Shown here: positions 16,301 through 56,476 of the stretch, piece by piece
How the letters are laid out: every line of letters begins with the position of its first letter
How positions within the stretch are numbered: position 1 is the stretch's first letter
Assembly: GCA_964276515.1 (NCBI GenBank)
Contig: OZ193910.1
Span: forward strand, 1,426,001-1,490,000
DNA: 64,000 nt
Direction: 5' to 3'
DNA from: Gordius albopunctatus
Taxonomy: Eukaryota
Made by a program: the position numbers and the translations under genes
The notes under the pieces: generated by a model
What the model saw: the letters and a program-made list of their open reading frames with translations, nothing else
What the model was told of the DNA's origin: nothing
Databases searched by the model: none

Positions 16301-19300
16301 TACGTTCTTGTAGGGGGCCGTCTTGCGTTGGCACCATAACAAAAGTCCATCCTTGGCCGTCATTTCTTAAAAAAGATGTCACGTGAATTGAAAGAAAAAC
16401 TTTGGAAAAAAGGAATAATTGTAGAATTTACAAAAATATTTTTATTCACCTTCCATGGTTATGTCTTGTATCGCGAACCGCAAAATGATGGTCCATATCA
16501 TACCCAGCGTCATTTTCAAATTGCCATCCACTATTTCTAAAGGAAAAATGATGAGATTTAGTTTATTTCACGTAAGAACATTATAAAAACGAAGCGTTAA
16601 AATTGGAAAATTATAAGAGCGGACGTATAAAACAAAACAAAAAACAATTATAATTCAAAAGCGTCACATGTGTCATATCTATTAAAAGTGGCCAGCTGTC
16701 GGCCAGGGATTTAAAATTCTACTTTGCTATAAAAATACCCATTTTTTGTTCAAGTAAAAAATCTGTGGAATATTTAGAGGGCGGGCAGCCACGACTGATT
16801 TCTATGAAAAGCTTAATGCCAACCCGACCAAAAGTCCCAGAGCACGAGGCAACTATAGGGGTAAAGATAGATATTAGTGGGTAGGAGGGCCTGGTATTTT
16901 ACCGTTTTGCGGTCTTCAGCTAGGGTCAGAGCGTTGAAGTTCTTGTTATAGGGGGCGAAAATGTGAAAAAATAACCATCATGCGCGTAGCCGGGGGGGGG
17001 GGGAACTGCCCCCTCTAAATCCCAAAATTCCAATCCTGGCTACCCCAATGTACATCGGGGTCCAACTAAATTTAAAGAGGCCGTGATCTAAGCACTTTGT
17101 TGGTGAGGGGAAGACTAACCTTCAGCCCCTATGGAAACGAGCTTGACGCCCTTGAGTTCGATGAATTTGAGGGCTTTGTTGACGTTGGCGATCTTGTGAA
17201 AGCGCATTTTACCCCGGTCCGGCTTGGGTAGAGTTTCCCCCGAAATGACTTCCAACAGGAGCATGAGTCTGAGTCCGTTCCTGAAATCTTCTTCGATGTT
17301 GTCGATCTGCGTGCCCGCTTTCCTCAAATGACTATTGCACCAGGCGGTGAAGGTCTGAAGGGAGGGAAACATACGATACAAGTATATGTAAGGAAGGATA
17401 TATATATATATATATATGTTAGTGGTGTTATAAGGAAACCAAAGCTTTCCAAGTCTGTTTTTCCAAATTCGACCTCTAGGTTTGGTCGGGATTTGGAAAA
17501 GGAGACCAGAAGCGATCCCTAGTCTTAGTTATTAAACCAAAGGTCGACCAAACAACAACCAGCCGTTTTTACAGCTACGATTTCCCCCAAAACTATCGCA
17601 GATTTTGGATATACACAAAGGCGCATATTCCTAAAAACTAACTTCGACCACTATGAGGCTGTGCAAATGAGTACTTAGAAGGGGAAAAGGGACGAATTAA
17701 TGAGATGCAAGCTCTCGAGACCTAAATTCTTAAAATGTAAGGGTTTCTTTGGAAAAGATCTAGACGGTCCCCCCCCTAGTGCGAAAAAATAATTTTTTCG
17801 AGGTCACAACATTGCACCTTCAAAAACCATCATATGTGCGTAGATTAGAGGTGTGCACGGATCAATCCGATCCGACATCCGATCCGATCCGTCAAAACTC
17901 GGATCGGATCGGATGGATATGAAATTTTTCAAAAACCCCTCGGATCGGATCGAAAAAATTTGATCCGTGCACACATCTAGCGTAGATCCCTCACTGCAAA
18001 ATGAAATTTCTCCGACCCGCCTTTATGATTGGATTGGATTGGATATGGCAGGGGGATCTTCTCCACCCCATGCTACACTAATGTCTGCCCCAACCCCTGG
18101 AAAAATTTAAAAAATATTGGTACTCCATGCACGTTCTTTCTAATCCTTAATATCAGGCAAAGAAGTGTTCAAGATATGATTTTGTTTGAAAACGATACTA
18201 TCTTCTCCCATGTCCGTAGCCAGAGGGCGGCGGGGGGGGGGGCGGGGCGATTGCCCCCTCTAAATTCAAAATTTAATATAATTATGGGGCTAAAATTACT
18301 AAAAATTATCATTTTGCCCCCCTTCCCAAAACATCGTTGCCCTCCCCCTCTAAATCCAATCCTGGCTATTGCTACCTTTCTTCAAAGTCCAGACGCGAGC
18401 CCGCACACTGAGTCGCTTAATATAGGCGTTAGCACAATATGTGCTCGCTGTTCGGTGCACGAGGCAGAGCGGTAGCGTATAAAAATGCTCGAGGGCCGGG
18501 CAGAAATTAGAGCAGATGGTGGCTGGAGTTGAAGAAAGTTAGCAATTTACTTACATAGATTTAAAGAATGGCTAGCTTAGAATTAGATGGGAAGAAAGGA
18601 TTAGTTATAAGGTTAATAACAACAGCTGGGTATGCCCACAAACCCAACGAAACTAGCATATAGCCCCCCCCCCTCATTTTCCACACATTTTTGAATGTGC
18701 CTTTGCTTAGTATAAGGATAGCAGCTGTTTAATGTTTGGTCAGATATTGAATTTACAGTGGAGAGATGAATATAAAATCAGGGGAGCATGAGAGAGACTG
18801 GCTTTGGCTTCTGCTAGATGTAAGTAAGTGAGGAATTGGTTTGTGCTTATGGCGACTTTATGAATTATGATGGTTTAAAGGGGGTGCCCAAAATATTGAA
18901 TTGTTTTTTTTTGTTGCAAAGTTGGGGAAAAGAGTCGGGGGATGATATAAAAAGAGTGCTTATGTTTATATAAAATTGTGGGATTTATAAATGAGTCTTC
19001 TAACATTACAATTGATTAAAAATAAAAATATTAAATAGTTGGGTAGATCTAAGATAAAAAGATGCGTCTTCAAATTTCATATAAGCATTCTATTTTTTAT
19101 CAATGTGAAAATAAATGAAATTTAATATATTAAATAACACATAACATTTAATAGTGTATAATATTATTTTTAAAAACAAGAGACTATAATAGATGCTAAT
19201 TTATTAAGGTGTATTTTGGATTGTAATTGCAAATCAATATTTAATTTTTATTAATTTAGTAGTGATCAAAATAGTAAATGACAGATGTTGTTATTAGGAA

Positions 19301-26151: not shown

Positions 26152-26492
26152 ATAATTACCTTTTATCTTCTCTTCACCTGTTTTTATCATGCATTAGGTC
26201 TTAAAGTCGTAATGTATGTTTTGATAAGTTTCCTCCATCTTGATAGGGTAAGCGCCATGTTCTGATTTATTTTCTTCACTTTATATACATGCTCTTTACA
26301 CCTGAAAGAGGTAGTCCTCTTCCTATCTTCCCCGGTACCTCCATTTCTTGTACTTTTCGAGATTTACTTCATTCGTCTATGGTATTATCTAATTAGAATA
26401 GTGGTCCCTTTATGATTTGGATATCACTTTGTTATCATTCCTTCTTACTATATTTGAATACACATTATTTATACTCCTCCTTATTCTATTCC

Positions 26493-26771
26493 TAATAAAT
26501 GTGTAATACTGTTTATCCAACTGATTTCTTACTCGTACTAGGATGATGAAAAAATGTGAAAGGTAATGAGACCAAACTTTATTAATAATCCTTTTTTCGC
26601 TCACACAACGCGTGATAAACATATATATACGATAAATAATATCTCGCGTAATAAATAATATTATTGACGCTCTATAACAACGAGAGATCGAGAGACAACG
26701 ACCGTGTAAACTACAACGGGGTAGGGGGGAAGGGAAGGAGAAATAGAGAAGTGTAAACACCCTTCACAACA
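26493..26771 (-). repeat. 3' LTR of element A
   Basis: Follows the PPT; matches 32069-32347. Confidence 0.95.
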
Positions 26772-26929
26772 CCATCCTTTTTAAAATAAATCCATCCGGG
26801 GCAAGACAAATGAGATAGCGCAACCGGTCAGCACGACCTCTTGATTGTTTAGAAATCGAGAGCTCCTCGGACGACGTAGTTGGGCTCGATGTCTTTACCT
26901 CATTCTCCCGCCTTGCACTTCGCTTCACC

Positions 26930-27676
26930 CTATTGTTCCCCACGCTGGTCCATATTTGCAGACCGGCGTACTACGTTCGACTCAACTGCCGAATCCGGTG
27001 GAGCCACCATTACAGGAGAAAGCAATAAAGCCTCCTCTTCCTGTAACGACAACGTTTCCACCTGACAGACAATTGTTGCCTCACCTGGCGCTACCACGCT
27101 CTGTTGCGACGCCACCGCGGACGACCGTATCAAGGTACTGTCACCCTGCAGCGCTACCGTCCCAACAACGTTCGCACCCGCCACTATTTCCGACGCGTCC
27201 ATTGCCTCAATGATACGCTCTACTACCGTACCTACGGCATTACCACCCTCCGGCGGTATCTGTGGGTTACATCTCAGCCCACGATGCCGACGATGACACC
27301 CATGACACCACCTCCGTGCAACACGACGTCGCCTGCCGCCATTCGTCGCCGGTGGGGCAGCTTCCGCGCCCCTCCGTACCTGGCGCCCAGCGGCTACGCC
27401 GCGTTGCGGATTCTCTTGAATCCTCGCTATCGGGATCCTCACTATCGGGGCGACGTTACGAGCCACTCCGCCACGTCGACCCATATTCACAAATCTTTCA
27501 CCCCCGGGTCGGATCTCTCTCCTCGCCTGAGGGTAGATTTGTTCATGGAAGTTGACCATGTGGGGCACACCGTCTGCACCCACCACAAACGACACGTGTA
27601 AATTGCTTGGGGCGTACAGTGGATCGATCGCCTGAACCACCACTTGTACTCGGCACCACGAAGCAATTATATCCAT
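26930..27676 (-). CDS. Element A ORF3: uncharacterised 248-aa accessory protein with an Arg-rich region and CX2CX3HX4C knuckle
   Basis: Open frame between the integrase tail and the PPT; AG acceptor abuts the ATG; homologous to ORF 54753-55238. Confidence 0.8.
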   Translation of the reverse strand: MDIIASWCRVQVVVQAIDPLYAPSNLHVSFVVGADGVPHMVNFHEQIYPQARREIRPGGERFVNMGRRGGVARNVAPIVRIPIARIQENPQRGVAAGRQVRRGAEAAPPATNGGRRRRVARRWCHGCHRRHRGLRCNPQIPPEGGNAVGTVVERIIEAMDASEIVAGANVVGTVALQGDSTLIRSSAVASQQSVVAPGEATIVCQVETLSLQEEEALLLSPVMVAPPDSAVESNVVRRSANMDQRGEQ

Positions 27677-27981
27677 CTAATATAACTAAAAACATTAGAC
27701 ATTATAACATATCCATATTAATATTTTATTCAAAACGCGGCCGCAATTGCTCTTCATGCCTCATAGCATGGTTATTTGCAGCCGTAAACTCCACGTCGTA
27801 AGCTTTAGAGCCCACGCGGGATTTAACTACCGCTTCGAGCCATTTTTCAGACCCGCCATAACCCCGGGCCCAAACTGCCTCATTAACCCGAAACCGGCCA
27901 ATGTCAGATACACGAGATGTCAACTCGCTATCTACGAACACATCGATCGGTATTCGCGGTATCCTATTTAAAAAAACCTTA

Positions 27982-30822
27982 CTAACCGGCGCGCGACACG
28001 GGAAACGAGGGGAAGCACCAAATGCCTTCTTTCTCCACCTTCTCGTTTTTTAACCATCGTTTAACTATCGCCACATGTCGCTCAGCCAGCCCGTTAGAAC
28101 TAGGATGATAGGGAGGCGTTAATACGTGACGTATGCCCCACCTATCGCAAAACGCTTTAAACTCGGCACTAGTAAACGCGGTACCATTATCTGACACCAC
28201 GCACTTCGGTATGCCAAAAGCGCCCATTAATTTTTCCAAAAAAACAATTACGCTTTTAGTAGATAGTTTCGACACCCGCTCGAATTCAACCCAACTCGAT
28301 GTCGCATCCACCAACAAAAGATATTGCTTAGAGTCAAAATCAAAAAAATCAAGGTGCACTCGATCCCACACATTATGTGCCTGAGGCCACCTCGCCTTTT
28401 TATCATGCCTGGGCATACTCGCATTCTTGTTACATGCAACGCATTTATGCCCATACATGCTTATATCTTTTCCCATCTTAGGCCACCAAACATATCTACG
28501 CGCCAAAACCTTCATTTTAGCCGTCCCAATATGTCCAGCATGCAATAAATTAAGAACCTGAGGACGTAACACTCGTGGAATCACTATGCGTTCACCCCGC
28601 AGAATGATACCGTTCTCAAAACAGAGTTCGTTCCTCACCCCACGGTAACCCACAGGAATCTCCTCGAGCGTCTCGCCGTCAATCAGGCATCTTGTAACTC
28701 GACTCAACTCCTCATCTTTACTAACCTCCTCTTTAAGGTTAACTGATGGGAAAGTTTCCGTTACAATATTGACCAAAAATTTATCACCTTCTAATTCCTT
28801 CTCAGGTAAGGTACCATTATCCTCACCTAAGCACGACAACGTATCAGGTAAATAATTCGTTGCCCCCTTTTTATACTCTAAGGTTACGTTAAAATTCCCC
28901 AAAAACAACAACCATTTCTGTAACCTAGGGCTAAGCAACAAACTATTGTTACACTTCGCGAACAGAGGAATTAGCGGTTTATGATCCGTAAAAACTTTAA
29001 AATCTCGACCAATAAGATACTCACGGCACTTTATTAACGCAAAAACCACGGCAAGAGCCTCCTTCTCGATAACTGAATAATTAAGCTCCGCCGCCGTTAA
29101 TTTACGCGAGAAAAATAGTATTGGCCGTTCTACGCCCATAACAATATGAAAGAGCATGCCACCTATACCGCTATTCGATGCGTCTACCGCTAGACCTATT
29201 GGCAGGTCACGATTAAAACACACCAAAACAGGATCGCTTCCTAACAAGTTCTTTAACTTATCGAAAGCTAACTGCTCCTTTTCGGCCCAAACAAAACGCA
29301 CATTACTCTGCGTCAGTCTATGCAAGGGAGCCGCCACCTCCGAACAATGTGGTATAAACTTGCGATAATACTTAACCGACCCCATGAAAGCCAAAACCTC
29401 TTTTTTACTAACCGGGGCCCGTATATTCTTAATCGCAGCCACCTTACTACCCAGAGGTCTAATTCTCCCACATGCGATAACATGCCCTAAAAAAGTAACT
29501 TCGGTAACCCCAATCATGCACTTTTTCCTGGTTAAACGTAATCCTCTCTCCTGGACGCGGTTCAGTACCGATTCTAGACGCATATCATGCTCTTGCATTG
29601 ACGCGCCCACAATCAGCACATCATCCAGGTAAAAGAACACGCCGTTCAAACCCTGGAAAACCGAGGCCATCGTCTTTTGGAAAACAGACGCCGAAATACT
29701 CAAGCCAAACGGCAAACGATTAAACGCAAACAACCCCAAAGGAGTATTTATCGTCATTAACCGTGCCGATCGAGCATTTAATCTGATCTGCAAATATGCC
29801 GATCTTAAATCAAGTTTTGAAAAATAACATGCGTTACTCAGGTTAGCTAAAATCTCCTCAACCCGCGGAATTGGGTACTTAATTTCCACCAACCACGGAT
29901 TAAGTGTAACCCGGAAATCTACACACAGACGAAGCGAACCGTCGCTCTTCTTAACCGGAACCAGAGGGGTCGCCCACTCACTATAATCGACGGGCGAAAC
30001 TATCCCCTGATCAACCCAGTCCCGAAGCACGGCATTAACTTCGTCCCGCCAAATAAACGGAATACGCCTATTCGGGCAAAACTTAGGACAGGCACCTCGT
30101 TTAAGCAGCACATCGTACTCATACCCCTTTAAACATCCTAAACCTTCCGAAAAAACTTCGGCGTAGCGCGTCACTAAATTACGCAAATTAGATTGCCATT
30201 CGCCCAGGTCGCCCAAACACTTACACTCACCCGAAGGTGTCACACCTGCAGCACCCGAAGGTGTCAAGCCCGCAGGCGTCCCGATGTTTATCATCGCACA
30301 CGACTTAGTCGCTTGCTTGGTACTCGGAGGCTCAATATTACATATCATCGCACTCCCCCCTGGGCTTACTTTACGACTACGCTTTAACTTCAACTCCGGG
30401 GTAGGTACTTCTAACGTGTCACATAACCCGAACCACCTAACACGAGGGCCTATCACTTGCAACCAATCCCAGCCCATTAAAGGGGCGATATTAGCTGCCG
30501 TAATAAAAATAGGTAAATTACACCTCGTGCCGCCAGCCACCACCTCCATACAGGCCTTCCCTACTAATTGGACAGACGCACCATCTAACTGGCGCGCATT
30601 AAAAAGGGAATGGGATATCTTTTTAGAGGGCCAAAATAACTTAAAATGCTTTAATGAAATTAAACTAACACAAGCGCCGGAATCGAGTATAAAATTAATT
30701 AACGCACCTTCCACCCACACTTTTGATGTGGGCAGTTGTGTACCAAATAATAAACGGGGCAAAGCGCTTGTTAAATTAAACGTTACAATGGAGCTGGATG
30801 AATTAGGTACGTTGACATCTAG
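27982..30822 (-). CDS. pol: Element A pol (protease, reverse transcriptase, RNase H, integrase)
   Basis: ILDSGA protease motif; LCVDFR, KLDLRSAY and YLDD RT motifs; VDAS, EKEALA and TDHKPL RNase H motifs; HHCC (HAGH...CVAC) and D,D,E integrase (HLDF, SDNG, AERHV). Frame is open from the ORF1 stop. The integrase C-terminal tail (27726-~27990) is in a shifted frame. Confidence 0.97.
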   Translation of the reverse strand, partial: LDVNVPNSSSSIVTFNLTSALPRLLFGTQLPTSKVWVEGALINFILDSGACVSLISLKHFKLFWPSKKISHSLFNARQLDGASVQLVGKACMEVVAGGTRCNLPIFITAANIAPLMGWDWLQVIGPRVRWFGLCDTLEVPTPELKLKRSRKVSPGGSAMICNIEPPSTKQATKSCAMINIGTPAGLTPSGAAGVTPSGECKCLGDLGEWQSNLRNLVTRYAEVFSEGLGCLKGYEYDVLLKRGACPKFCPNRRIPFIWRDEVNAVLRDWVDQGIVSPVDYSEWATPLVPVKKSDGSLRLCVDFRVTLNPWLVEIKYPIPRVEEILANLSNACYFSKLDLRSAYLQIRLNARSARLMTINTPLGLFAFNRLPFGLSISASVFQKTMASVFQGLNGVFFYLDDVLIVGASMQEHDMRLESVLNRVQERGLRLTRKKCMIGVTEVTFLGHVIACGRIRPLGSKVAAIKNIRAPVSKKEVLAFMGSVKYYRKFIPHCSEVAAPLHRLTQSNVRFVWAEKEQLAFDKLKNLLGSDPVLVCFNRDLPIGLAVDASNSGIGGMLFHIVMGVERPILFFSRKLTAAELNYSVIEKEALAVVFALIKCREYLIGRDFKVFTDHKPLIPLFAKCNNSLLLSPRLQKWLLFLGNFNVTLEYKKGATNYLPDTLSCLGEDNGTLPEKELEGDKFLVNIVTETFPSVNLKEEVSKDEELSRVTRCLIDGETLEEIPVGYRGVRNELCFENGIILRGERIVIPRVLRPQVLNLLHAGHIGTAKMKVLARRYVWWPKMGKDISMYGHKCVACNKNASMPRHDKKARWPQAHNVWDRVHLDFFDFDSKQYLLLVDATSSWVEFERVSKLSTKSVIVFLEKLMGAFGIPKCVVSDNGTAFTSAEFKAFCDRWGIRHVLTPPYHPSSNGLAERHVAIVKRWLKNEKVEKEGIWCFPSFPVSRAG

Positions 30823-31326
30823 TCAACGCACCCCCGCTCCACTAGCAGTCATCGCGGAAGGCAGGCTACACCCGCACGAAGTTGAAACACCCTTATTAAA
30901 ATTATTTCCCCTCTCACTATCCCTGTTCATATTGCCATTACAAAAAGCATTCTGAGAGGGATGCGAAACATTATTACCCGCATAATTCCTGTCATCAAAA
31001 TTAGCCCTATTAAATTTATCCCTATAACCATCTGGCAGTGGTCTAGAATATCTCCCATCTCTGCCATTATCCCTGTTATCAAAACTTTGCCTAATTCTGC
31101 CTTTGAACATCCTTCCTGCTTTCTTATTACAATATCTAACCATATGTGGTCCCCCACAGTGAAAGCATTTTATCGCTTGTTTTACTACATTTACCCTAAT
31201 GCTTAAACACCACATCTTCCACAAAGCAGCTATTAAAACGATTAATAAAACCAGGACTAACCAGTTCGCTCTAATAATATCCACATATAAGTCCACCCTC
31301 TGTGTCGTTTTAAAAAATGATAACAT
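30823..31326 (-). CDS. Element A ORF1 (gag position): predicted TM helix + CX2CX3HX4C knuckle + Arg/Asn/Gly-rich tail, 167 aa, no recognisable capsid domain
   Basis: First ATG at 31326, with an in-frame TAA shortly upstream. Hydrophobic WLVLVLLIVLIAALWKMWCL at ~31263-31204; CFHCGGPHMVRYC at 31167-31129. Confidence 0.8.
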   Translation of the reverse strand: MLSFFKTTQRVDLYVDIIRANWLVLVLLIVLIAALWKMWCLSIRVNVVKQAIKCFHCGGPHMVRYCNKKAGRMFKGRIRQSFDNRDNGRDGRYSRPLPDGYRDKFNRANFDDRNYAGNNVSHPSQNAFCNGNMNRDSERGNNFNKGVSTSCGCSLPSAMTASGAGVR

Positions 31327-32068
31327 ATCTGCTACACAGCTTAACAAATTAACGCTAGTAAAAAAGTTAAATGCTTACTTTAATCGCCTGCAATTAATGC
31401 AATATCCCACAATAGAAAAATTAAACCCTAATCGAAATAAAAAAACTATGGCAAATATATAAATATTACTCTGCAAATTAATTAATGCACGCGCAATCTT
31501 TAAAACAATGTAAGATATACGATACCTTTACTACAACTTGGTTAATTGTTCAAAACTTATAATGTTACCAATATCAAATTACATCAAAATCAATATACAA
31601 CAAGAACAAATTGTAACATATAAATTAATTTGAGGCCAAAATATTGCACAATTTAATCAAATAGCAAAATAGTACGTATCACTAAATTAAATCGAAGCCG
31701 AAATATTAAAAAATTCAAACTAATGGCAAAATTAGTAAATGTTACCAAAACTTTTCAAAGATAATATATTGCACCCCTAAATCTAATAGCAAAATTGTGA
31801 GTTATATTTAAACTAATTCAAAGATAAAATTATTAAAAAATTACGTAAATACCAAATATGCATGTATTTATCAACCCACTTGAAGTAAACTATATATATA
31901 TCAGCGTGATCTAAAACTAATTTGAATCAAGTAAATAGCATAATAAAATTCTTACAATAAACAGCCTGAAAAATTTAATTGTAAGAAGAAAATATCCAAA
32001 AAGCATCAAAAAAATCAGAAATATTACATTATTCATTAAACAAAGAATATTAAATTAGCTATCACCAT

Positions 32069-32347
32069 TAATAAATGTGTAATACTGTTTATCCAACTGA
32101 TTTCTTACTCGTACTAGGATGATGAAAAAATGTGAAAGGTAATGAGACCAAACTTTATTAATAATCCTTTTTTCGCTCACACAACGCGTGATAAACATAT
32201 ATATACGATAAATAATATCTCGCGTAATAAATAATATTATTGACGCTCTATAACAACGAGAGATCGAGAGACAACGACCGTGTAAACTACAACGGGGTAG
32301 GGGGGAAGGGAAGGAGAAATAGAGAAGTGTAAACACCCTTCACAACA
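32069..32347 (-). repeat. 5' LTR of element A
   Basis: Precedes the TGG-initiated PBS; matches 26493-26771. Confidence 0.95.
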
Positions 32348-32499
32348 ATTCCCAATCATTATAATTTGAATAGCCCCCAACTACCTTACGAGTTATTCAT
32401 ATTAAACTCTTTACAATGGTATATAAGCTAATGCTTAACGATAGAGAGTATCTTTGGTTTTATACAAATAAAGTAGGCTCAAACCCCTACAAGTCTCCC

Positions 32500-33360
32500 T
32501 TCTTAGAAATATGCCCATACCACCTTGGGCGATTTTCGTGAGTCATGGCCGCCATAGGTTGAATACCCATTTTTGTCATGAGAAGGTCATAATGCCATAT
32601 CGTCGAGTTTCGTATACCCTATCCATCGTATTATTCTCATCTCTGTGGCTTGTAATAGCTTTTCTTCCGTGGTGTTGAATGCCCATGTTTCACTTCCATA
32701 GAGTAAAACCGGTCTTGCGATGGATTTTCAAGCTTTGCTCTTCAACCATATTGGCATTTTTTGTTCCACATTACACTCCCTCTTGATGTAGCATCGAGCC
32801 GAGGTATGTAAACCTGTCTATTTTTGGATACTTTAGATGGCCATCCAGCGATGAGGCGCCTGTAACGTTCATCTACATGTATCCGTTTTTCGATCGTTGA
32901 CCTTTAAACCATATTCAGCTAATCGCTTTGACCACTTTTAGGTTCTTTCGAATACTTTCTCTTTTGTCTCTTCGCACAGTAGCATATAGCATACACCATG
33001 GCGATAATTTTTGAATGTCTCTCGTTATTATGTCCATAATTATATGAAATAAAAAGCGACTTAGAACAGATCCTTGATGTAATTCAATTATAATGCGAAA
33101 GATTTAGATTCTCTAACTGTCGTCTTAACGCAAGAATTAAAGGCTTTTTAAATAGATTTAATAAGTCGAATATATGCGTCAGGGATATTTTGTTTTCTCA
33201 AGCATCATCAGATTAAATCGCAAGGGACCGTGTCATAAGCTTTCTTTAAGTGGACAAAGACCATATGTAGGTGTCTTCTCTTTTCACCATATTTACTAAT
33301 TTTTAGTCTTAGTGCGAAGATTAGGTCGATTGTGGATTTTCCGGCCACAAATATAGGGTT
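32500..33360 (-). mobile_element. Degenerate RTE-like non-LTR (LINE) reverse transcriptase fragment
   Basis: GKSTIDLIFALR...LHMVFVHLKKAYDTVP, LHQGSVLS and PVLLYGSETWA motifs, with stops and frameshifts. Confidence 0.8.
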
Positions 33361-35638
33361 GTCAGGAATGGCATCCTCTGACACCACCCGCAAGGCTTCA
33401 GTTGATTGAAAACTCAGCAGTTTGCACGTCTCTTTTGGGCCCCAGTCGCTTAAATTGGTTGGCATATGACGTGCGCTTAAAATTGCAGAAGAAAGAAAGA
33501 ACTCAATCGAATCTCCAGATTTATAGAATTTATTTCCTTTAGGTTCAAATCGTAGTCCAACCACGCCAAACGTTGAAGGAATAAATGGGAAGAAGGAATA
33601 TATTCACGAATAAGAGATAACCATCACGGACAACAATTTATTACCAAGGATAGATCACAAGTGGCGAAATAGCGATAAAACAATGGAAACATAAAAATAA
33701 TATATCTTCACGAGGAATAACAAAGTATAAAATAATATACAAAGGTAATCTCACAATTTTATACGCAATATTTATATTAACCAATATCATTTATTTTTAT
33801 CTAAAGTAAAATGCATGTAATATATCATCACATAGAAAAGATAATAAAAAAGCCAGGCACTATCTTGACGGGCCTTAATTTAACTTAATATGATAGATAC
33901 CTTTTAAGTAACCTATGGAAAAAATAGAAATGAGTGAAATTAATTCTTCTTGTCAATTTTAAGATAATTATAACCAACTACGGTGATAAACTTCTCTGAA
34001 TTACATTTATAAAGCAATATAAGGACGGCCAAACTATTCTTATAAACCTGCAACCGTCAATATTATTATAAATACCTTAGATATTTTCAGCATTCACTTG
34101 TCGCCCTAACCCGAGATTCGTAAAGTAAAATATTAATTTTTCTTACAAGCCATATATTAGTTAGAATAAAAATTACAATTAGTTTATGTTTACCTAACGC
34201 AACTAGCCTATACCATTCATTAGATCAAGGGCTTGACTTAAATACGCTCCTGCTCATCCCGATATAACGGAGCTCAACTACGCTTATGCGATATATAATC
34301 TAAAGTTAGATTAACGAATTCGTCAAATCCTATTATGAAATTATACTATTTTTAAATATGAAATAACTGCTAAAGAATTAAAATTATCATTCTGCTTCCT
34401 TTATATTTACAGTATGGATTTTGAGATGAACAAATTTATTCTTGATAGCATATTAGGTATTATCTTAATTTATTTAATGAATTTCTTATGACTCTTATGT
34501 AAGTGTCTTTGCCAAAAATGATATAAGTTTATCACGTGCAATAATTTTAATTTTATAATAGATCTTGATGAAACTCTCTTGCTAGAATATTGGGTATCAT
34601 TATAATTTTAATAAATTTCTTATAATTCTTTTGTAAGTGTCTTCTTTGCAAAAATAATGATATATGTTTAACGGTGCAATAGTTTTATAATTGGCCTTGG
34701 TGAAACTCCTTTTATAATAATTAATCCCTCAATGAATACTTAGCGTGTAGTGTTTTTAGTCTGCGTAGTTAGAGCATACTTCCCTTCAAGTACAATATGT
34801 ATAGTTTTTTAGGTCCTGGAGCAACTCATTTTCTACACCTAATCATAACACAACCATCAAAGCATAAAACATTATAATAGCTCACAGTCTTGAAAAATAT
34901 AATTCCTGAAGAAAAATATATATTAAAGGAAAACTAACCACTTAATTTATCCACCTCTTTATTTCGCTTATCCTACAAAGAAGTCATTTTCATAATAATT
35001 GAAGTATAAACGAAAATTTTGAGACAAGATATAGGGTTGAAAGGTAATTTATTATTTGCGCTTTGTCCCTTAATAATTTGAAATTAAAGCAAAGTACCAC
35101 TTTAGAAAATATTTTACATTTATATTTTTAATGTTTTTAATTAAAAACATGAAATACATAATAATATAATAAAAGAACAATGTGACTTTACAACATTTAA
35201 TAACTCACCTTAATAATATTTTAAACAATTTATAAGAATCTTGTGTGTAATAAGGCCAATGATTATATTTGGGAAAAGCTAGACTCCCGTAGACATAAGC
35301 GTATCCAGGATTGCCTCAAGGCAGGGGTTTACACTAATTAAGGGGGGTGGGGTTAATTTTGTGTCAAAAAGTTTTTGATTAAACAAAAACTAATTAAAAT
35401 TAGATAAATTCAATATCTACGATGGGTATTAGGTTAAAAACCCATTAATAATAGGTTCAGAGACACAAATTGCTAAGAGTTCCTTCCAATTTTTCTGTTT
35501 GCGTTTTTGGGGCAATGTTTGAATTAAACACTTGCATGGGTCTTTTTTGCCCACCAGTACGAAAAATTGTCCCGCCTCGGGACTGTTAAAGTGAAATTAT
35601 AAGCTCGTCATTTTTTGCAAAGCACCGGTGTAGCCTAC

Positions 35639-38600
35639 TGTAACGAAGTGGCCGGCTGGTAGAACCCTAAGCTCCCGTATACTAGGCTCCCGTATAACAC
35701 TAACTCCGATTCTAAACCAAGAGACTAAGTCAAAAGATAGAGACTGTTTTATTAGGTGGATAAGGCTTTATATACACATAGCGAAAGACATATATAAAAG
35801 TAGTAATCAATTAAGAGATAATGTACGGTGTAAACTAAGGTATATTCAAATGGCTAAGCGTATATTCAATTATCTGTGACCGCGCTCAAGTATAGGAAAA
35901 ACGCGTGTATTCAAATTGCAACCTTAAATGCGGCTACACTACACTTCTCCTTCCTTTAAGCGGAACCTTGAGGATATCTGACAGTTGGCACCGATACTCT
36001 TTTATAGGAAAGTATGAAATCGCTTTGACCAACAAGCGCGAGCCAGGTGGTTTGGTTTACCACACCTATAACATATTATTTTCTTGTTGTTCCTAAAGGT
36101 GCTAAGATTAAGAACATTTCTTAAAAAAAATATTATAATTATTAGTCAAATTCCTAGTTGGATATTTTTTATCCAGATGTAATGTCCAAATCGTTAAACT
36201 ATCAATATCCTTTGGATAAATTTGACTTTTTAATTCACTCAGGTGGGTCGTGACTATATAAGCTAGCAACACCAATTTTCTCAAATCTCCGTCAATTTTT
36301 CTAAGACGAAAGATTAATTCCAATTGATATAAATAATCATCAATATTTTTAGTTGAATCATATGGTGTAATATCTCTAACCCAACCAAGAGAATTCCCGG
36401 AATCTGATTCGAATTTTGAACCAAACCAAGAGAATTTCCGGAATCTGATTCCAATTTTGAATTCACATCGGACTTCTTCTTGGTCATTTTGATTAACAAA
36501 GGCTAGCGGCACTCATTATGGAGTATCCCATCCTCGTCGCCAAATGTAACGAAGTGGCCGGCTGGTAGAACCCTAAGCTCCCGTATACTAGGCTCCCGTA
36601 TAACACTAACTCCGATTCTAAACCAAGAGACTAAGTCAAAAGACAGAGACTGTTTTATTAGGTGGATAAGGCTTTATATACACATAGCGAAAGACATATA
36701 TAAAAGTAGTAATCAATTAAGAGATAATGTACGGTGTAAACTAAGGTATATTCAAATGGCTAAGCGTATATTCAATTATCTGTGACCGCGCTCAAGTATA
36801 GGAAAAACGCGTGTATTCAAATTGCAACCTTAAATGCGGCTACACTACACTTCTCCTTCCTTTAAGCGGAACCTTGAGGATATCTGACAGTTGGCACCGA
36901 TACTCTTTTATGGGAAAGTATGAAATCGCTTTAACAAGCGCGAGCCAGGTGGTTTGGTTTACCACACCTATAACATATTATTTTCTTGTTGTTCCTAAAG
37001 GTGCTAAGATTAAGAACATTTCTTAAAAAAAATATTATAATTATTAGTCAAATTCCTAGTTGGATATTTTTTATCCAGATGTAATGTCCAAATCGTTAAA
37101 CTATCAATATCCTTTGGATAAATTTGACTTTTTAATTCACTCAGGTGGGTCGTGCCTATATAAGCTAGCAACACCAATTTTCTCAAATCTCCGTCAATTT
37201 TTCTAAGACGAAAGATTAATTCCAATTGATATAAATAATCATCAATATTTTTAGTTGAATCATATGGTGTAATATCTCTAACCCAACCAAGAGAATTCCC
37301 GGAATCTGATTCGAATTTTGAACCAAACCAAGAGAATTTCCGGAATCTGATTCCAATTTTGAATTCACATCGGACTTCTTCTTGGTCATTTTGATTAACA
37401 AAGGCTAGCGGCACTCATTATGGAGTATCCCATCCTCGTCGCCAAATGTAACGAAGTTGCCGATCACATCCTCGTCGCCAAATGTAACGAAGTGGCCGAC
37501 TGGTAGAACCCTAAGCTCCCGTATACTAAGCTCCCGTATAACACTAACTCCGATTCTAAACCAAGAGACTAAGTCAAAAGACAGAGACTGTTTTATTAGG
37601 TGGATAAGGCTTTATATACACATAGCGAAAGACATATATAAAAGTAGTAATCAATTAAGAGATAATGTACGGTGTAAACTAAGGTATATTCAAATGGCTA
37701 AGCGTATATTCAATTATCTGTGACCGCGCTCAAGTATAGGAAAAACGCGTGTATTCAAATTGCAACCTTAAATGCGGCTACACTACACTTCTCCTTCCTT
37801 TAAGCGGAACCTTGAGGATATCTGACAGTTGGCACCGATACTCTTTTATAGGAAAGTATGAAATCGCTTTGACCAACAAGCGCGAGCCAGGTGGTTTGGT
37901 TTACCACACCTATAACATATTATTTTCTTGTTGTTCCTAAAGGTGCTAATATTAAAAACATTTCTTAAAAAAAATATTATAATTATTAGTCAAATTCCTA
38001 GTTGGATATTTTTTATCCAGATGTAATGTCCAAATCGTTAAACTATCAATATCCTTTGGATAAATTTGACTTTTTAATTCACTCAGGTGGGTCGTGCCTA
38101 TATAAGCTAGCAACACCAATTTTCTCAAATCTCCGTCAATTTTTCTAAGACGAAAGATTAATTCCAATTGATATAAATAATCATCAATATTTTTAGTTGA
38201 ATCATATGGTGTAATATCTCTAACCCAACCAAGAGAATTCCCGGAATCTGATTCGAATTTTGAACCAAACCAAGAGAATTTCCGGAATCTGATTCCAATT
38301 TTGAATTCACATCGGACTTCTTCTTGGTCATTTTGATTAACAAAGGCTAGCGGCACTCATTATGGAGTATCCCATCCTCGTCGCCAAATGTAACGAAGTT
38401 GCCGATCACATCCTCGTCGCCAAATGTAACGAAGTGGCCGACTGGTAGAACCCTAAGCTCCCGTATACTAAGCTCCCGTATAACACTAACTCCGATTCTA
38501 AACCAAGAGACTAAGTCAAAAGACAGAGACTGTTTTATTAGGTGGATAAGGCTTTATATACACATAGCGAAAGACATATATAAAAGTAGTAATCAATTAA

Positions 38601-41600
38601 GAGATAATGTACGGTGTAAACTAAGGTATATTCAAATGGCTAAGCGTATATTCAATTATCTGTGACCGCGCTCAAGTATAGGAAAAACGCGTGTATTCAA
38701 ATTGCAACCTTAAATGCGGCTACACTACACTTCTCCTTCCTTTAAGCGGAACCTTGAGGATATCTGACAGTTGGCACCGATACTCTTTTATAGGAAAGTA
38801 TGAAATCGCTTTGACCAACAAGCGCGAGCCAGGTGGTTTGGTTTACCACACCTATAACATATTATTTTCTTGTTGTTCCTAAAGGTGCTAAGATTAAAAA
38901 CATTTCTTAAAAAAAATATTATAATTATTAGTCAAATTCCTAGTTGGATATTTTTTATCCAGATGTAATGTCCAAATCGTTAAACTATCAATATCCTTTG
39001 GATAAATTTGACTTTTTAATTCACTCAGGTGGGTCGTGCCTATATAAGCTAGCAACACCAATTTTCTCAAATCTCCGTCAATTTTTCTAAGACGAAAGAT
39101 TAATTCCAATTGATATAAATAATCATCAATATTTTTAGTTGAATCATATGGTGTAATATCTCTAACCCAACCAAGAGAATTCCCGGAATCTGATTCGAAT
39201 TTTGAACCAAACCAAGAGAATTTCCGGAATCTGATTCCAATTTTGAATTCACATCGGACTTCTTCTTGGTCATTTTGATTAACAAAGGCTAGCGGCACTC
39301 ATTATGGAGTATCCCATCCTCGTCGCCAAATGTAACGAAGTTGCCGATCACATCCTCGTCGCCAAATGTAACGAAGTGGCCGACTGGTAGAACCCTAAGC
39401 TCCCGTATACTAAGCTCCCGTATAACACTAACTCCGATTCTAAACCAAGAGACTAAGTCAAAAGACAGAGACTGTTTTATTAGGTGGATAAGGCTTTATA
39501 TACACATAGCGAAAGACATATATAAAAGTAGTAATCAATTAAGAGATAATGTACGGTGTAAACTAAGGTATATTCAAATGGCTAAGCGTATATTCAATTA
39601 TCTGTGACCGCGCTCAAGTATAGGAAAAACGCGTGTATTCAAATTGCAACCTTAAATGCGGCTACACTACACTTCTCCTTCCTTTAAGCGGAACCTTGAG
39701 GATATCTGACAGTTGGCACCGATACTCTTTTATAGGAAAGTATGAAATCGCTTTGACCAACAAGCGCGAGCCAGGTGGTTTGGTTTACCACACCTATAAC
39801 ATATTATTTTCTTGTTGTTCCTAAAGGTGCTAATATTAAAAACATTTCTTAAAAAAAATATTATAATTATTAGTCAAATTCCTAGTTGGATATTTTTTAT
39901 CCAGATGTAATGTCCAAATCGTTAAACTATCAATATCCTTTGGATAAATTTGACTTTTTAATTCACTCAGGTGGGTCGTGCCTATATAAGCTAGCAACAC
40001 CAATTTTCTCAAATCTCCGTCAATTTTTCTAAGACGAAAGATTAATTCCAATTGATATAAATAATCATCAATATTTTTAGTTGAATCATATGGTGTAATA
40101 TCTCTAACCCAACCAAGAGAATTCCCGGAATCTGATTCGAATTTTGAACCAAACCAAGAGAATTTCCGGAATCTGATTCCAATTTTGAATTCACATCGGA
40201 CTTCTTCTTGGTCATTTTGATTAACAAAGGCTAGCGGCACTCATTATGGAGTATCCCATCCTCGTCGCCAAATGTAACGAAGTTGCCGATCACATCCTCG
40301 TCGCCAAATGTAACGAAGTGGCCGACTGGTAGAACCCTAAGCTCCCGTATACTAAGCTCCCGTATAACACTAACTCCGATTCTAAACCAAGAGACTAAGT
40401 CAAAAGACAGAGACTGTTTTATTAGGTGGATAAGGCTTTATATACACATAGCGAAAGACATATATAAAAGTAGTAATCAATTAAGAGATAATGTACGGTG
40501 TAAACTAAGGTATATTCAAATGGCTAAGCGTATATTCAATTATCTGTGACCGCGCTCAAGTATAGGAAAAACGCGTGTATTCAAATTGCAACCTTAAATG
40601 CGGCTACACTACACTTCTCCTTCCTTTAAGCGGAACCTTGAGGATATCTGACAGTTGGCACCGATACTCTTTTATAGGAAAGTATGAAATCGCTTTGACC
40701 AACAAGCGCGAGCCAGGTGGTTTGGTTTACCACACCTATAACATATTATTTTCTTGTTGTTCCTAAAGGTGCTAAGATTAAAAACATTTCTTAAAAAAAA
40801 TATTATAATTATTAGTCAAATTCCTAGTTGGATATTTTTTATCCAGATGTAATGTCCAAATCGTTAAACTATCAATATCCTTTGGATAAATTTGACTTTT
40901 TAATTCACTCAGGTGGGTCGTGCCTATATAAGCTAGCAACACCAATTTTCTCAAATCTCCGTCAATTTTTCTAAGACGAAAGATTAATTCCAATTGATAT
41001 AAATAATCATCAATATTTTTAGTTGAATCATATGGTGTAATATCTCTAACCCAACCAAGAGAATTCCCGGAATCTGATTCGAATTTTGAACCAAACCAAG
41101 AGAATTTCCGGAATCTGATTCCAATTTTGAATTCACATCGGACTTCTTCTTGGTCATTTTGATTAACAAAGGCTAGCGGCACTCATTATGGAGTATCCCA
41201 TCCTCGTCGCCAAATGTAACGAAGTTGCCGATCACATCCTCGTCGCCAAATGTAACGAAGTGGCCGACTGGTAGAACCCTAAGCTCCCGTATACTAAGCT
41301 CCCGTATAACACTAACTCCGATTCTAAACCAAGAGACTAAGTCAAAAGACAGAGACTGTTTTATTAGGTGGATAAGGCTTTATATACACATAGCGAAAGA
41401 CATATATAAAAGTAGTAATCAATTAAGAGATAATGTACGGTGTAAACTAAGGTATATTCAAATGGCTAAGCGTATATTCAATTATCTGTGACCGCGCTCA
41501 AGTATAGGAAAAACGCGTGTATTCAAATTGCAACCTTAAATGCGGCTACACTACACTTCTCCTTCCTTTAAGCGGAACCTTGAGGATATCTGACAGTTGG

Positions 41601-44301
41601 CACCGATACTCTTTTATAGGAAAGTATGAAATCGCTTTGACCAACAAGCGCGAGCCAGGTGGTTTGGTTTACCACACCTATAACATATTATTTTCTTGTT
41701 GTTCCTAAAGGTGCTAAGATTAAAAACATTTCTTAAAAAAAATATTATAATTATTAGTCAAATTCCTAGTTGGATATTTTTTATCCAGATGTAATGTCCA
41801 AATCGTTAAACTATCAATATCCTTTGGATAAATTTGACTTTTTAATTCACTCAGGTGGGTCGTGCCTATATAAGCTAGCAACACCAATTTTCTCAAATCT
41901 CCGTCAATTTTTCTAAGACGAAAGATTAATTCCAATTGATATAAATAATCATCAATATTTTTAGTTGAATCATATGGTGTAATATCTCTAACCCAACCAA
42001 GAGAATTCCCGGAATCTGATTCGAATTTTGAACCAAACCAAGAGAATTTCCGGAATCTGATTCCAATTTTGAATTCACATCGGACTTCTTCTTGGTCATT
42101 TTGATTAACAAAGGCTAGCGGCACTCATTATGGAGTATCCCATCCTCGTCGCCAAATGTAACGAAGTTGCCGATCACATCCTCGTCGCCAAATGTAACGA
42201 AGTGGCCGACTGGTAGAACCCTAAGCTCCCGTATACTAAGCTCCCGTATAACACTAACTCCGATTCTAAACCAAGAGACTAAGTCAAAAGACAGAGACTG
42301 TTTTATTAGGTGGATAAGGCTTTATATACACATAGCGAAAGACATATATAAAAGTAGTAATCAATTAAGAGATAATGTACGGTGTAAACTAAGGTATATT
42401 CAAATGGCTAAGCGTATATTCAATTATCTGTGACCGCGCTCAAGTATAGGAAAAACGCGTGTATTCAAATTGCAACCTTAAATGCGGCTACACTACACTT
42501 CTCCTTCCTTTAAGCGGAACCTTGAGGATATCTGACAGTTGGCACCGATACTCTTTTATAGGAAAGTATGAAATCGCTTTGACCAACAAGCGCGAGCCAG
42601 GTGGTTTGGTTTACCACACCTATAACATATTATTTTCTTGTTGTTCCTAAAGGTGCTAAGATTAAAAACATTTCTTAAAAAAAATATTATAATTATTAGT
42701 CAAATTCCTAGTTGGATATTTTTTATCCAGATGTAATGTCCAAATCGTTAAACTATCAATATCCTTTGGATAAATTTGACTTTTTAATTCACTCAGGTGG
42801 GTCGTGCCTATATAAGCTAGCAACACCAATTTTCTCAAATCTCCGTCAATTTTTCTAAGACGAAAGATTAATTCCAATTGATATAAATAATCATCAATAT
42901 TTTTAGTTGAATCATATGGTGTAATATCTCTAACCCAACCAAGAGAATTCCCGGAATCTGATTCGAATTTTGAACCAAACCAAGAGAATTTCCGGAATCT
43001 GATTCCAATTTTGAATTCACATCGGACTTCTTCTTGGTCATTTTGATTAACAAAGGCTAGCGGCACTCATTATGGAGTATCCCATCCTCGTCGCCAAATG
43101 TAACGAAGTTGCCGATCACATCCTCGTCGCCAAATGTAACGAAGTGGCCGACTGGTAGAACCCTAAGCTCCCGTATACTAAGCTCCCGTATAACACTAAC
43201 TCCGATTCTAAACCAAGAGACTAAGTCAAAAGACAGAGACTGTTTTATTAGGTGGATAAGGCTTTATATACACATAGCGAAAGACATATATAAAAGTAGT
43301 AATCAATTAAGAGATAATGTACGGTGTAAACTAAGGTATATTCAAATGGCTAAGCGTATATTCAATTATCTGTGACCGCGCTCAAGTATAGGAAAAACGC
43401 GTGTATTCAAATTGCAACCTTAAATGCGGCTACACTACACTTCTCCTTCCTTTAAGCGGAACCTTGAGGATATCTGACAGTTGGCACCGATACTCTTTTA
43501 TAGGAAAGTATGAAATCGCTTTGACCAACAAGCGCGAGCCAGGTGGTTTGGTTTACCACACCTATAACATATTATTTTCTTGTTGTTCCTAAAGGTGCTA
43601 ATATTAAAAACATTTCTTAAAAAAAATATTATAATTATTAGACAAATTCCTAGTTGGATATTTTTTATCCAGATGTAATGTCCAAATCGTTAAACTATCA
43701 ATATCCTTTGGATAAATTTGACTTTTTAATTCACTCAGGTGGGTCGTGCCTATATAAGCTAGCAACACCAATTTTCTCAAATCTCCGTCAATTTTTCTAA
43801 GACGAAAGATTAATTCCAATTGATATAAATAATCATCAATATTTTTAGTTGAATCATATGGTGTAATATCTCTAACCCAACCAAGAGAATTCCCGGAATC
43901 TGATTCGAATTTTGAACCAAACCAAGAGAATTTCCGGAATCTGATTCCAATTTTGAATTCACATCGGACTTCTTCTTGGTCATTTTGATTAACAAAGGCT
44001 AGCGGCACTCATTATGGAGTATCCCATCCTCGTCGCCAAATGTAACGAAGTTGCCGATCACATCCTCGTCGCCAAATGTAACGAAGTGGCCGACTGGTAG
44101 AACCCTAAGCTCCCGTATACTAAGCTCCCGTATAACACTAACTCCGATTCTAAACCAAGAGACTAAGTCAAAAGACAGAGACTGTTTTATTAGGTGGATA
44201 AGGCTTTATATACACATAGCGAAAGACATGAAAGTAGTAATCAATTACGAGATAATGTACGCTGTAAACTAAGGTATATTCAAATGGCTAAGTGTATATT
44301 C
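35639..44301 (-). repeat. Tandem array of a non-autonomous mini LTR retroelement: 10 LTRs (last truncated) alternating with 9 internal segments; unit 906, 938, then 942 bp
   Basis: 305-bp LTR TGTAAC...CTACA (first copy 35639-35943). PPT AAAGGAAGGAGAAG on -. PBS TGGCGACGAGGATGGGAT matches the tRNA-Ser(GCU) 3' end as I recall it. The internal segment carries a gag N-terminal fragment (IDDYLYQLELIF...VLLAYIG) similar to the gag at 50396-50832. ORF periodicity is 942 bp. Confidence 0.95.
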
Positions 44302-47768: not shown

Positions 47769-47995
47769 AATATAGCTTCATACAATTCATGGCTTTTACA
47801 AGGATCATATGATTCCTGCCGTGTATGTGTTTATGCCGGATCGGAAGCGAGAGACGTATTGCAGAGTGTTTGAAAAATTGAAGGATTAATGTTTGGAATT
47901 CAATTTGCAATTCAATCCATCATTTATCCAGATTGATTTTGAACGCTCTGCAAATAGTGCTCTTCGGATCTGCTTTCCAAACGCCGTTATAAAAG

Positions 47996-48473
47996 TGTGG
48001 TAATTCGATTGATTTATCGCTTGATTTATTCGATTACTTGAACCGAAGCTATTATGATTGAGGATTGTTGTTGTTGGTGTTGATGTTGTTGTGTATGACT
48101 GAGGAGATGCACCGTGGTATAAAAGAACAGAAAGCAATATATACACTCATTCACTTACTCACTTACACTCTCTTCCCCACTCATTCACAAATTCACTAAT
48201 TCATTATTCACTACCATTTTGTACAATCGCTCACTTACTTACTTTTCACCTATGTTAACGTTGCCAATTCGCAGTTAATACGCCTATAACATTAGTCATT
48301 TAATTGTAATTATACCGTGTAAATTATATCTTGTTCGATTATCCTTGGAAATTATGTAAGTATTGATCCTGTAACATCTTTAAATAAAGTAGATATATTT
48401 ATTAGCTTAAAACAGTTTATATTAGTAGTAGATAATAAAGAGTTGGAATAGATTATAACAGGAGGTTATAACA
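47996..48473. mobile_element. Solo LTR (478 bp)
   Basis: TG...CA termini and 5-bp TSD AAAAG (47991-47995, 48474-48478); removing it restores the MULE exon/intron junction IKG|GT. Confidence 0.85.
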
Positions 48474-54403: not shown

Positions 54404-54530
54404 ATCATTATTGAATTCTTTTCGTATCGATAATTATAGTCTAATTTAACGCGAAAAAACATTGGCCTCCCTTTTTTGGGGAGGACCTAACAGCAAGAGT
54501 TCTAAATAAATAAAATTTTAAAATTGGAGA

Positions 54531-55412
54531 CGTTTGCCAGTTGGTATTGAATTTTTTAATCGTAATTTACGTTTTCCGCCTGATTTTTTGCTAGATAGCA
54601 AATTTAAACATCAATCAGGCAAGACTAAATATAATATTAACGATTTTGTGTGGTCGAAAAATTATTTAGGTCAACCTAGATGGGAACTATCTAAAGTTGT
54701 TGATCACGTAGGTAATAAAATTTAGCCTAATGTTTATTTTTTTGCATTGTAGATGGACGTCATTACTTCATGGTGTATTGTCCGAATTGTCGTAGAGAGA
54801 TTGGCCGGAGTGCGTCCTCCGTGCCCTCTCCATATTTCATTTGTTATCGGGATGGACGTCATCCCAAGAATAACGTTTTTTGCAGAGCTTCCTGTGAATG
54901 GGGGTCAGGGGATGCCCCAGGGTGCTAATGGTCGTGTGTATCGGCAGGCACCTATGCGTCTTAACAGAGGAAGTGGTGGTCGACGGCACCCACGAGGTGT
55001 TAATCGTTTGCGGTGTGAAATATGTCAGCGATGGCATCGTTTACCGATGTGTCCGTCGTCGATTGTTAACAATAATTTAAATACCTTGCCTGTTGGAGGG
55101 CAAGTAATCATGCCTGTTGGAGGGCAGGTGGTTACACCCCAGGTACAAACCAGTGGGTTGGCAACAACTATCATTGGTAGTGCTTTGGTCACCCCGTTAG
55201 CTGCTATGACTTTGGCAGGTGATCTGCAAAGGCAGTGATCAGCTATTAAAAAGGGGAGGTGTGGCATATGTCGATATTAAATTATATGCCGAATTAAGTT
55301 ATTTTTATCTTGGTTAAACGTTATAAGCCCTCTGACAAAATAAAATTAAATGCTAGTAATAAAATCCTCCACTAAAATTATAATGTGTTATGGAAATCCG
55401 TTTTTTTTATAA
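54531..55412 (+). mobile_element. 3' remnant of a second ORF3-bearing Gypsy (element C): integrase tail, ORF3, PPT, LTR
   Basis: 54534-54725 (FFNRNLR...DFVWSKNYLGQPRW...VGNK) aligns with the element A tail (FLNRIPR...EAVWARGYGGSEKW...VGSK). PPT AAAAAGGGGAGG at 55248-55259, then TGTGG at 55260. Right boundary approximate. Confidence 0.8.
54753..55238 (+). CDS. Element C ORF3 (161 aa), homolog of element A ORF3
   Basis: MDVITSWCIVRIVV...LHISFVIGMDVIP vs MDIIASWCRVQVVV...LHVSFVVGADGVP; CEICQRWHRLPMC vs CHGCHRRHRGLRC. Confidence 0.8.
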   Translation: MDVITSWCIVRIVVERLAGVRPPCPLHISFVIGMDVIPRITFFAELPVNGGQGMPQGANGRVYRQAPMRLNRGSGGRRHPRGVNRLRCEICQRWHRLPMCPSSIVNNNLNTLPVGGQVIMPVGGQVVTPQVQTSGLATTIIGSALVTPLAAMTLAGDLQRQ

Positions 55413-56476
55413 CTCTCCAATTTTAGAATTTTATTTATTAAGAACTCTTGCTGTTAGTTCCTCCCCAAAAAAAGGGAGGCCAATGTTTTTCGCGTTAAAT
55501 TAGACTATAATTATCGATACGAAAAGAATTCAATAATGATAAACCATAACGTAATAATCCGTAACGCAGGGTAACAAAATCGATAATGATAATGGTAACA
55601 TAATCGATAAGATAAAATGGTAATAACAAAATTAGAATGATTCATTACAATTTACGCATATTAATGGAAAAATAATTAAACAGATGCCAACATAGATAAG
55701 TAAAAATAATTAAGCGGGTGCAAAGACACCACATGTGTATATCTCGTAATGAAGCTTCTAATGACATCCACGCACCATTAATCAATCTTCTGGTATGAGC
55801 GATATCAAGATACAGAAAGATTTTGGAAGAGACCCAATATGTTATATATGTTAACCTGATGTCATAAATACGCAAGATATTATGGAATAAATATGTATAT
55901 CATCATGAATCGCTAGATGGACAAAATAATAACAAACTTTTCGATGATTTGAATATATAAAAAACATCATAGCTTATGCATTTCATATATATTTTAAATA
56001 TGCTATTAAAAATATATATAAACACGCATGCTTAGTTAAAATACGTGCTTTAATGTATTTTATTTATCATATAACTATTACCTATGTAGTTTGGTTATAT
56101 GAAAGCCATAACTTAGTTTATTATATAATTGTATACAAAATAGTAACTAAATACATTTTAATCCAATTCTACACTTAGTGATTGATTTGTTAATATGTAT
56201 TTATTTATAAAATATTATTATACATTTTGATATAACTTAATTTGTTTTAATTAACAATTATAGCATCCTTTTATTAAGTAGTTTAATTACATATTATAAT
56301 TTCACCATTTTATAAATTTTAGTTTTATTGTCTACTTTGGGATGCTTATTAGATAATGCCTATCTTAGATTTTGCACCAGATTCCCTCGGACGCCTATAC
56401 CCGAACCTATTTAATCGCTTTTACAAATTTTAAACCACAGAAAATCAAAGATTCAAAAATTATATTTTTATTTATA

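Follow-up and report, generated by a model that had tools for sequence, protein, structure and literature searches.

A Ty3/Gypsy retrotransposon with a predicted membrane helix and a zinc knuckle in the gag position

Results and Discussion

An LTR retrotransposon of the Ty3/Gypsy type (32347-26493, minus strand) was found in the 64,000-nucleotide stretch of DNA analyzed here (the window), and its gag position is occupied by an open reading frame of 167 amino acids (ORF1; 30823..31326, minus strand) that carries a short N-terminus, a predicted transmembrane helix, a CCHC zinc knuckle and a disordered basic tail in place of a recognizable capsid. We judge it about an even chance (probability near 0.5) that ORF1 is a membrane-anchored nucleocapsid replacing Gag, that readthrough tethers Pol to it and that a membrane compartment does the work of the capsid. 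In LTR retrotransposons and retroviruses, the capsid is considered the indispensable vessel in which the reaction takes place. The present family, which moved recently and has a full Pol but a membrane anchor for a capsid, would make the need of a protein shell in LTR-type reverse transcription testable.

Boundaries and family status of the element

The 5' LTR (32069..32347, minus strand) is 279 nt long, has TG...TA ends and is identical to the 3' LTR (26771-26493), which together with the polypurine tract occupies 26493..26790 on the minus strand. A 5-bp target-site duplication, GGAAT, flanks the element (32348..32352, with the second copy at 26488-26492). Primer-binding sites are recognized by their position beside the LTR and a TGG start, and a motif of this kind lies 1 nt past the LTR (32058..32067, minus strand). 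The identical LTRs and the target duplication show that the insertion is young and recent, and the empty-site joint 26487-32348, in which 5860 nt are skipped, was present in runs X1, X2 and X3. These are among the seven public sequencing runs, from three studies, that contain the whole or part of the element; five of them (X1-X5) were compared. Run X2 contains 88 variant contigs over the ORF1 stretch, which indicates that the element family has many copies, contig depth not being equivalent to copy number. No related loci were found in metagenome contigs or viral contigs. The element is nested in a very high-depth repeat (26200-26487 and 32353-32600), which is probably a fragment of a non-LTR element.

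[quoted passage not shown] The integrase frame is broken near 28,000 in the window copy, so that the C-terminal tail (27726..28049, minus strand) lies in a different frame; otherwise there is no stop through the integrase core. This break is not family-wide as the contigs of X1 and X3 differ in length near 28,000. TRIM/LARD-like LTR derivatives are defined by lost pol coding capacity, and the element does not fit this type, given the open Pol and the absence of the frameshift from the X1 and X3 contigs.

Of the 7990 candidates scored, P0001 from Gordionus sp. has the closest Pol, with 58% identity compared to 46% for the next candidate; this single match hints that the host may be a horsehair worm. 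P0001 is also the sister in the RT/RNase H tree (57% over 418 columns; SH-aLRT 100), a quick tree of 57 rows with a midpoint root and no named reference clades. The remaining Pol neighbours are K02A2.6-like proteins (P0002-P0036), and we tentatively call the element Mag-like from its Gag and RT motifs. The element shares with Mag-like Ty3/Gypsy elements the LTRs, target duplication, primer site, polypurine tract and the protease-RT-RNase H-integrase order, as well as a CX2CX3HX4C knuckle like that of P0003. However, in the 27 close relatives that have a full gag, the knuckle is preceded by 180-300 amino acids of capsid, and in many of them gag continues into pol without a change of frame, whereas here only 53 amino acids with a membrane helix precede a single knuckle, a stop precedes pol and a further reading frame (ORF3) follows it. 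Direct LTRs, target duplication, primer site, polypurine tract, Pol order, RT grouping and a CCHC motif upstream of the protease were thus all observed, and the one feature of the group that was not found is a Gag with a capsid domain. Judged from its sequence, the element is of Ty3/Gypsy descent by its LTRs, Pol order and RT, and departs from the group by the apparent absence of a capsid.

Anatomy of ORF1

ORF1 starts with 21 amino acids that are followed by a 20-residue apolar run (residues 22-41; 31204..31263, minus strand), for which the best 19-residue Kyte-Doolittle (KD) mean is 2.66. In the single-sequence AlphaFold2 model, residues 11-40 are helical with pLDDT values of 91-96 and the tail is disordered. 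A 12-residue linker separates the helix from the zinc knuckle (residues 54-66; 31129..31167, minus strand), which has the spacing CX2CX3HX4C instead of the canonical CX2CX4HX4C and gave knuckle-only matches to P0122 and P0123. The remaining 100 amino acids form the tail, with 18 K/R, 14 N and 12 G and a high content of D as well. The hydrophobic run, the knuckle 12 residues further on and the basic tail had been described in the original prediction and are confirmed here, as is an in-frame stop upstream of the ATG (TAA at 31377-31375, 16 codons 5' of it).

Membrane proteins are commonly oriented by the positive-inside rule. The N-terminal 21 amino acids of ORF1 have a net charge of +1, while three K/R occur in residues 42-56 in addition to K37, and hydropathy, model and charge together predict a transmembrane helix with an N-out/C-in topology that would leave the knuckle in the cytosol. 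The original prediction of a single-pass membrane protein with a cytosolic RNA-binding domain therefore stands as far as the predicted helix, the predicted position of the knuckle and the sequence context for readthrough into Pol are concerned, but it missed ORF3, the hairpin at the stop codon and the broken integrase, which are all described in this study.

ORF1 has no match in Pfam, where its knuckle falls below detection. The homologue search returned none among 44 candidates and the Atlas returned no match, while a search of 1.84 billion representatives gave three weak matches, two of them knuckle-only and one to an unrelated repeat protein. No homologue of ORF1 beyond the knuckle, the helix region included, was found in these searches. 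The only PDB match, an integrin transmembrane segment with an E-value of 1.9, was taken as chance. On the plus strand, a stop-free antisense frame of 262 codons (30167-30955) runs across the ORF1/protease region and is probably a by-product.

Origin and conservation of the hydrophobic run

The leader between the primer site and ORF1 (31327..32057, minus strand) is non-coding, has a T content of 47%, holds no capsid remnant and contains a donor-like GTAAG at 31378; it shows insertions and deletions among copies in several runs. The T content of ORF1 codons 1-45 (38.5%) lies between that of the leader and that of the remainder of ORF1 (27%). This composition would fit a deletion derivative in which loss of the capsid by an ancestral deletion fused the T-rich leader to the knuckle in one frame. 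The hydrophobic run would then be a by-product kept by the need for an open frame into Pol. Two chance controls bear on this explanation. Thirteen of 3000 stop-free shuffles of ORF1 codons 1-53 attain a KD mean of 2.66. Among 1000 random stop-free frames with the composition of the leader, 61 (6%) do so as well. The run is thus unlikely to arise from ORF1's own composition, yet an origin from the T-rich leader is possible, and composition alone could still account for it.

The same arrangement was found in other copies. The X1 contig over 30714-31400, which extends from upstream of the ATG through into pol, has five differences and no gaps, the X2 contig over 31140-31347 is identical to the window copy, and the X3 contig over 30899-31543 likewise has this helix and this knuckle, its reading frame being free of gaps. 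The architecture is family-wide, and the dominant copies share the helix-knuckle-Pol junction. A minor variant in X2 lacks the leader and the helix (joint 31169-31844; depth 690 compared to about 13,000). Private decay of this single copy was ruled out, since the X1-X3 contigs and diverged copies have the same ORF1 architecture.

The diverged copies come from runs X4 and X5, which represent a differently named organism (organism B; about 13% diverged), and both the helix and the knuckle are present in them, in agreement with the expectation that the helix would be conserved in relatives. Within 581 nt, these copies show 71-75 differences from the window copy, and none of the differences listed is an insertion or deletion in ORF1. 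The match to the element tapers off some 18 nt before the ORF1 ATG. One tail variant of ORF1 is longer by 60 nt in frame, and a single contig in both X4 and X5 diverges just upstream of the knuckle.

Forty of the 79 difference rows were available for organism B, giving 34 listed changes in ORF1. Only two of these 34 changes fall in the helix and knuckle, compared to an expectation set by their 20% share of codons (p=0.02, the test regions having been picked after viewing the rows). Both are in the helix (M38I and I32L) and exchange one hydrophobic residue for another, and no change was listed in the knuckle. When only non-synonymous changes are counted, the depletion in helix and knuckle has a p-value of 0.086. 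The pN/pS ratio among the listed changes is 0.71 for ORF1 overall (p=0.24; 9 synonymous and 25 non-synonymous changes), and for residues 1-67 it is 0.5 (p=0.20). Neither value is significant, and the 12 differences listed for Pol (5 synonymous and 7 non-synonymous) do not make a usable control, being both too few and too selected. The suggested dN/dS check is consequently divided: the depletion in helix and knuckle speaks for constraint, but the pN/pS ratio does not reach significance.

Taken with the absence of homologues for the helix region in our searches, the intermediate T content and the leader-frame control, the non-significant pN/pS would favour the deletion derivative. Nevertheless, we consider this origin unlikely as a full explanation because the changes are depleted in the helix and knuckle relative to the linker and tail, and because those in the helix are conservative. 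Regardless of how it arose, an apolar run of 20 residues would be expected to engage the machinery for membrane targeting, and a deletion origin is compatible with a later function.

Absence of a capsid and comparison with relatives

Of the 36 top-ranked Pol relatives, 27 contributed the part of Gag ahead of the knuckle to a profile (HMM), which was used to search all six frames of the element, and the best score between the LTRs was -5 bits. With the same profile, the positive controls were detected: the gag at 50395 scored 40 bits, and the gag starts in a 942-bp tandem array scored 11 bits. There is thus no capsid sequence between the LTRs and no recognizable capsid exon that could be spliced in from the mobile unit. 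A capsid exon supplied from inside the element is ruled out by this result, as the absence of a spliced capsid in the original prediction requires. With a membrane anchor and a knuckle instead of a recognizable capsid, assembly would likely take place on a membrane and not in a shell of the element's own.

The hydrophobic run has no comparable counterpart ahead of the knuckle among the 120 Pol relatives listed, where the maximum KD mean in those with a knuckle is 1.58. The gag at 50396 has a capsid region and the ORF at 63191 has a DUF7041 domain, which is consistent with the contrast that had been drawn with the other gags of the window. No precedent for a gag with a transmembrane segment in place of the capsid was found in the accessible literature at the level of titles and abstract openings. 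Nothing matching a TM-CCHC gag design appears in the accessible portions of PMC13524379, PMC7264820 and PMC8310308, and a literature search on nematomorph LTR elements found nothing.

A capsid could also be provided in trans. The element would then be semi-autonomous, with its own Pol and with capsids borrowed from a capsid-coding Gypsy element, and ORF1 would be a membrane tether or a FAST-like protein that recruits RNPs or aids cell-to-cell spread. The window does contain capsid-type gags (at 50395-50814 and as the gag starts of the 942-bp array), although Pol is only about 34% identical to that of the capsid-coding neighbour, a distance that seems large for co-assembly. As for the FAST-like role, the screen for sORF2/FAST proteins is described in the available part of its report (bioRxiv 10.1101/2025.03.14.642691) as selecting proteins of 60-210 amino acids with one transmembrane segment, an ectodomain of 10-50 amino acids, a cytoplasmic part of less than 150 amino acids and basic residues after the transmembrane segment. 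ORF1 fits most of these features: it has a single transmembrane segment, a suitable ectodomain length and, by hydropathy and charge only, an N-out/C-in orientation, with a borderline basic count of three K/R in 15 residues if the helix ends at 41. The sORF2/FAST-like proteins of MDG1-group retrotransposons, as far as that part describes them, share with ORF1 the short ectodomain, the single transmembrane segment, the basic cytoplasmic side and a similar size. However, they are accessory proteins beside a capsid-forming gag and are often myristoylated, whereas ORF1 takes the place of gag and lacks the MGxxxS/T myristoylation motif (no glycine at position 2). Its nucleocapsid knuckle and the frame shared with Pol are likewise absent from the sORF2 descriptions in that part of the report. 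ORF1 resembles FAST/sORF2 proteins in topology only, and we find capsid borrowing a somewhat unlikely account; if it were correct, the design would be a semi-parasitic one of an unusual kind, in which the element has a membrane protein of its own.

Stop codon, readthrough context and hairpin

ORF1 terminates with UGA-CUAG in the same frame as Pol. UGA-CUAG is described as a readthrough-prone extended stop in mammalian cells, with an efficiency that varies more than 10-fold with context, in the part of PMC9841425 available to us. The first methionine of Pol comes after the protease DSG motif, which means that the protease is not made from a downstream ATG and needs readthrough; on the sequence, then, readthrough of the ORF1 stop into Pol is what we infer. 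A spliced pol mRNA using the AG-ATG after the ORF1 stop was rejected since this ATG is out of frame and opens only 11 codons. Candida Tca2 is likewise reported to have gag and pol in one frame with a UGA between them (PMC2194720).

The stop (30825-30823) is located in the 5' arm of a predicted hairpin (30790..30840, minus strand), which is the most stable of 580 windows of 60 nt in the element. It has a z-score of -3.09, with one of 200 shuffles folding equally well, and none of the 34 listed organism B changes falls within its span (p=0.046). Known stimulators of viral readthrough lie 3' of the stop; here, in contrast, the stop itself is within the hairpin. Tuning of readthrough and RNA packaging are candidate roles for this structure.

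ORF3 downstream of pol

A third reading frame, ORF3 (26930..27698, minus strand; 248 amino acids in this copy, with its ATG at 27676), follows pol. A homologous ORF (54753-55238; E 1.7e-9) occurs in a fragment of a related family (54522..55733, plus strand) that comprises an integrase tail, a splice-acceptor-like sequence with the ORF3 homologue, a polypurine tract and an LTR. Both ORF3s have a beta-rich start of about 45 amino acids, an R/G-rich linker and a CX2CX3HX4C knuckle. Both of their ATGs come directly after a branch point, a T tract and a YAG, a pattern that was found at only 6 of the 2181 ATGs in the window, and ORF3 is on these signals probably made from spliced RNA, for which 32108 and 31378 are candidate donors. 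The C-terminal part of ORF3 in the window copy may not represent the family because the X1 and X2 contigs have a small indel near 27130.

The fragment lies downstream of the capsid-coding element at 50396-54400, where an integrase tail, the ORF3, the polypurine tract and the LTR of a third family were observed. The ORF3 homologue was not accepted as part of the capsid-coding element as it has its own integrase tail and its own LTR; this integrase tail is closer to that of the 32347-26493 element (E 3e-11 compared to 0.59).

Conservation of ORF3 in two families, its knuckle and the rare splice signals ahead of both ATGs could also mean that the spliced product is a new capsid or nucleocapsid forming an unrecognized shell, with ORF1 serving as a matrix-like membrane anchor. 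We hold this to be very unlikely, as the conserved domain spans only about 45 amino acids and the rest is of low complexity. Furthermore, ORF3 gave no homologue among 1113 candidates and no match in the Atlas, PDB or Pfam, and its structure model is uninformative (pLDDT 32).

Extra sense ORFs after pol, typically spliced and in some cases with a transmembrane segment, are reported for bdelloid rotifers (non-env ORF3s; PMC5408684) and plants (PMC7264820) in the accessible portions of these papers, the former also giving splicing as typical for the extra ORF3 of LTR elements. Within the same portions, the proteins with transmembrane segments are encoded in addition to a normal gag. In the present element, by contrast, it is the gag position that carries the transmembrane segment, and the extra ORF3 is a knuckle protein of the soluble type.

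A possible membrane-based assembly

Returning to the reading of ORF1 as an anchored nucleocapsid, the observed anatomy is that of a helix, a knuckle and a basic tail with no capsid sequence between the LTRs. The helix is predicted to insert N-out/C-in, and the cytosolic knuckle and tail would then bind the element RNA. Occasional readthrough at UGA-CUAG would place a minor ORF1-Pol fusion on the same membrane, from which the protease would free RT and integrase. The spliced mRNA would supply a further knuckle protein, the soluble ORF3, with a possible role in condensing or scaffolding the RNP. Finally, a membrane patch, pocket or vesicle might concentrate and shield the components in the place of a capsid. 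Counting against this reading are the non-significant pN/pS ratios, the leader-frame control, the X2 variant without the helix, the X4 and X5 contigs that diverge ahead of the knuckle, the capsid-coding relatives in the window, the frameshifted integrase of this copy and the position of the stop inside the hairpin.

A broader proposal, which we put forward tentatively, is that the element belongs to an autonomous LTR lineage without a retroviral-type capsid, in which the anchored nucleocapsid and readthrough Pol build membrane compartments or vesicles with the help of the spliced knuckle protein ORF3, possibly allowing cell-to-cell movement. The architecture TM-CCHC-UGA-CUAG-pol-spliced CCHC ORF3 is searchable, and annotation pipelines would call such elements gag-less or broken.

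Other features of the window

A tandem array (35630-44367) consists of about nine units of 942 bp, each containing the primer-site motif TGGCGACGAG and, on the minus strand, the 5' part of a gag of the capsid type. The gag of the array is 32% identical over 63 amino acids to the gag at 50335 (E 3e-8), and the sequence of the array suggests a satellite derived from a different Gypsy element, namely from its 5' end. A rearranged nest was found at 50233-55733, where an inverted, 95% identical copy of the LTR at 55260-55733 is split into two parts (50233-50395 and 54401-54530) by the 5'-truncated and frameshifted capsid-coding Gypsy element (50396-54400). The gag start with the DUF7041 domain (E 1e-19) lies at 63191-64000 and continues past the window end. 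The ORF pieces at 45807-49218 resemble a FLYWCH/MULE-type DNA transposon, and two exons on the minus strand (13732-14169 and 17115-17528), which we take to be alpha-actinin-like, indicate an animal host gene.
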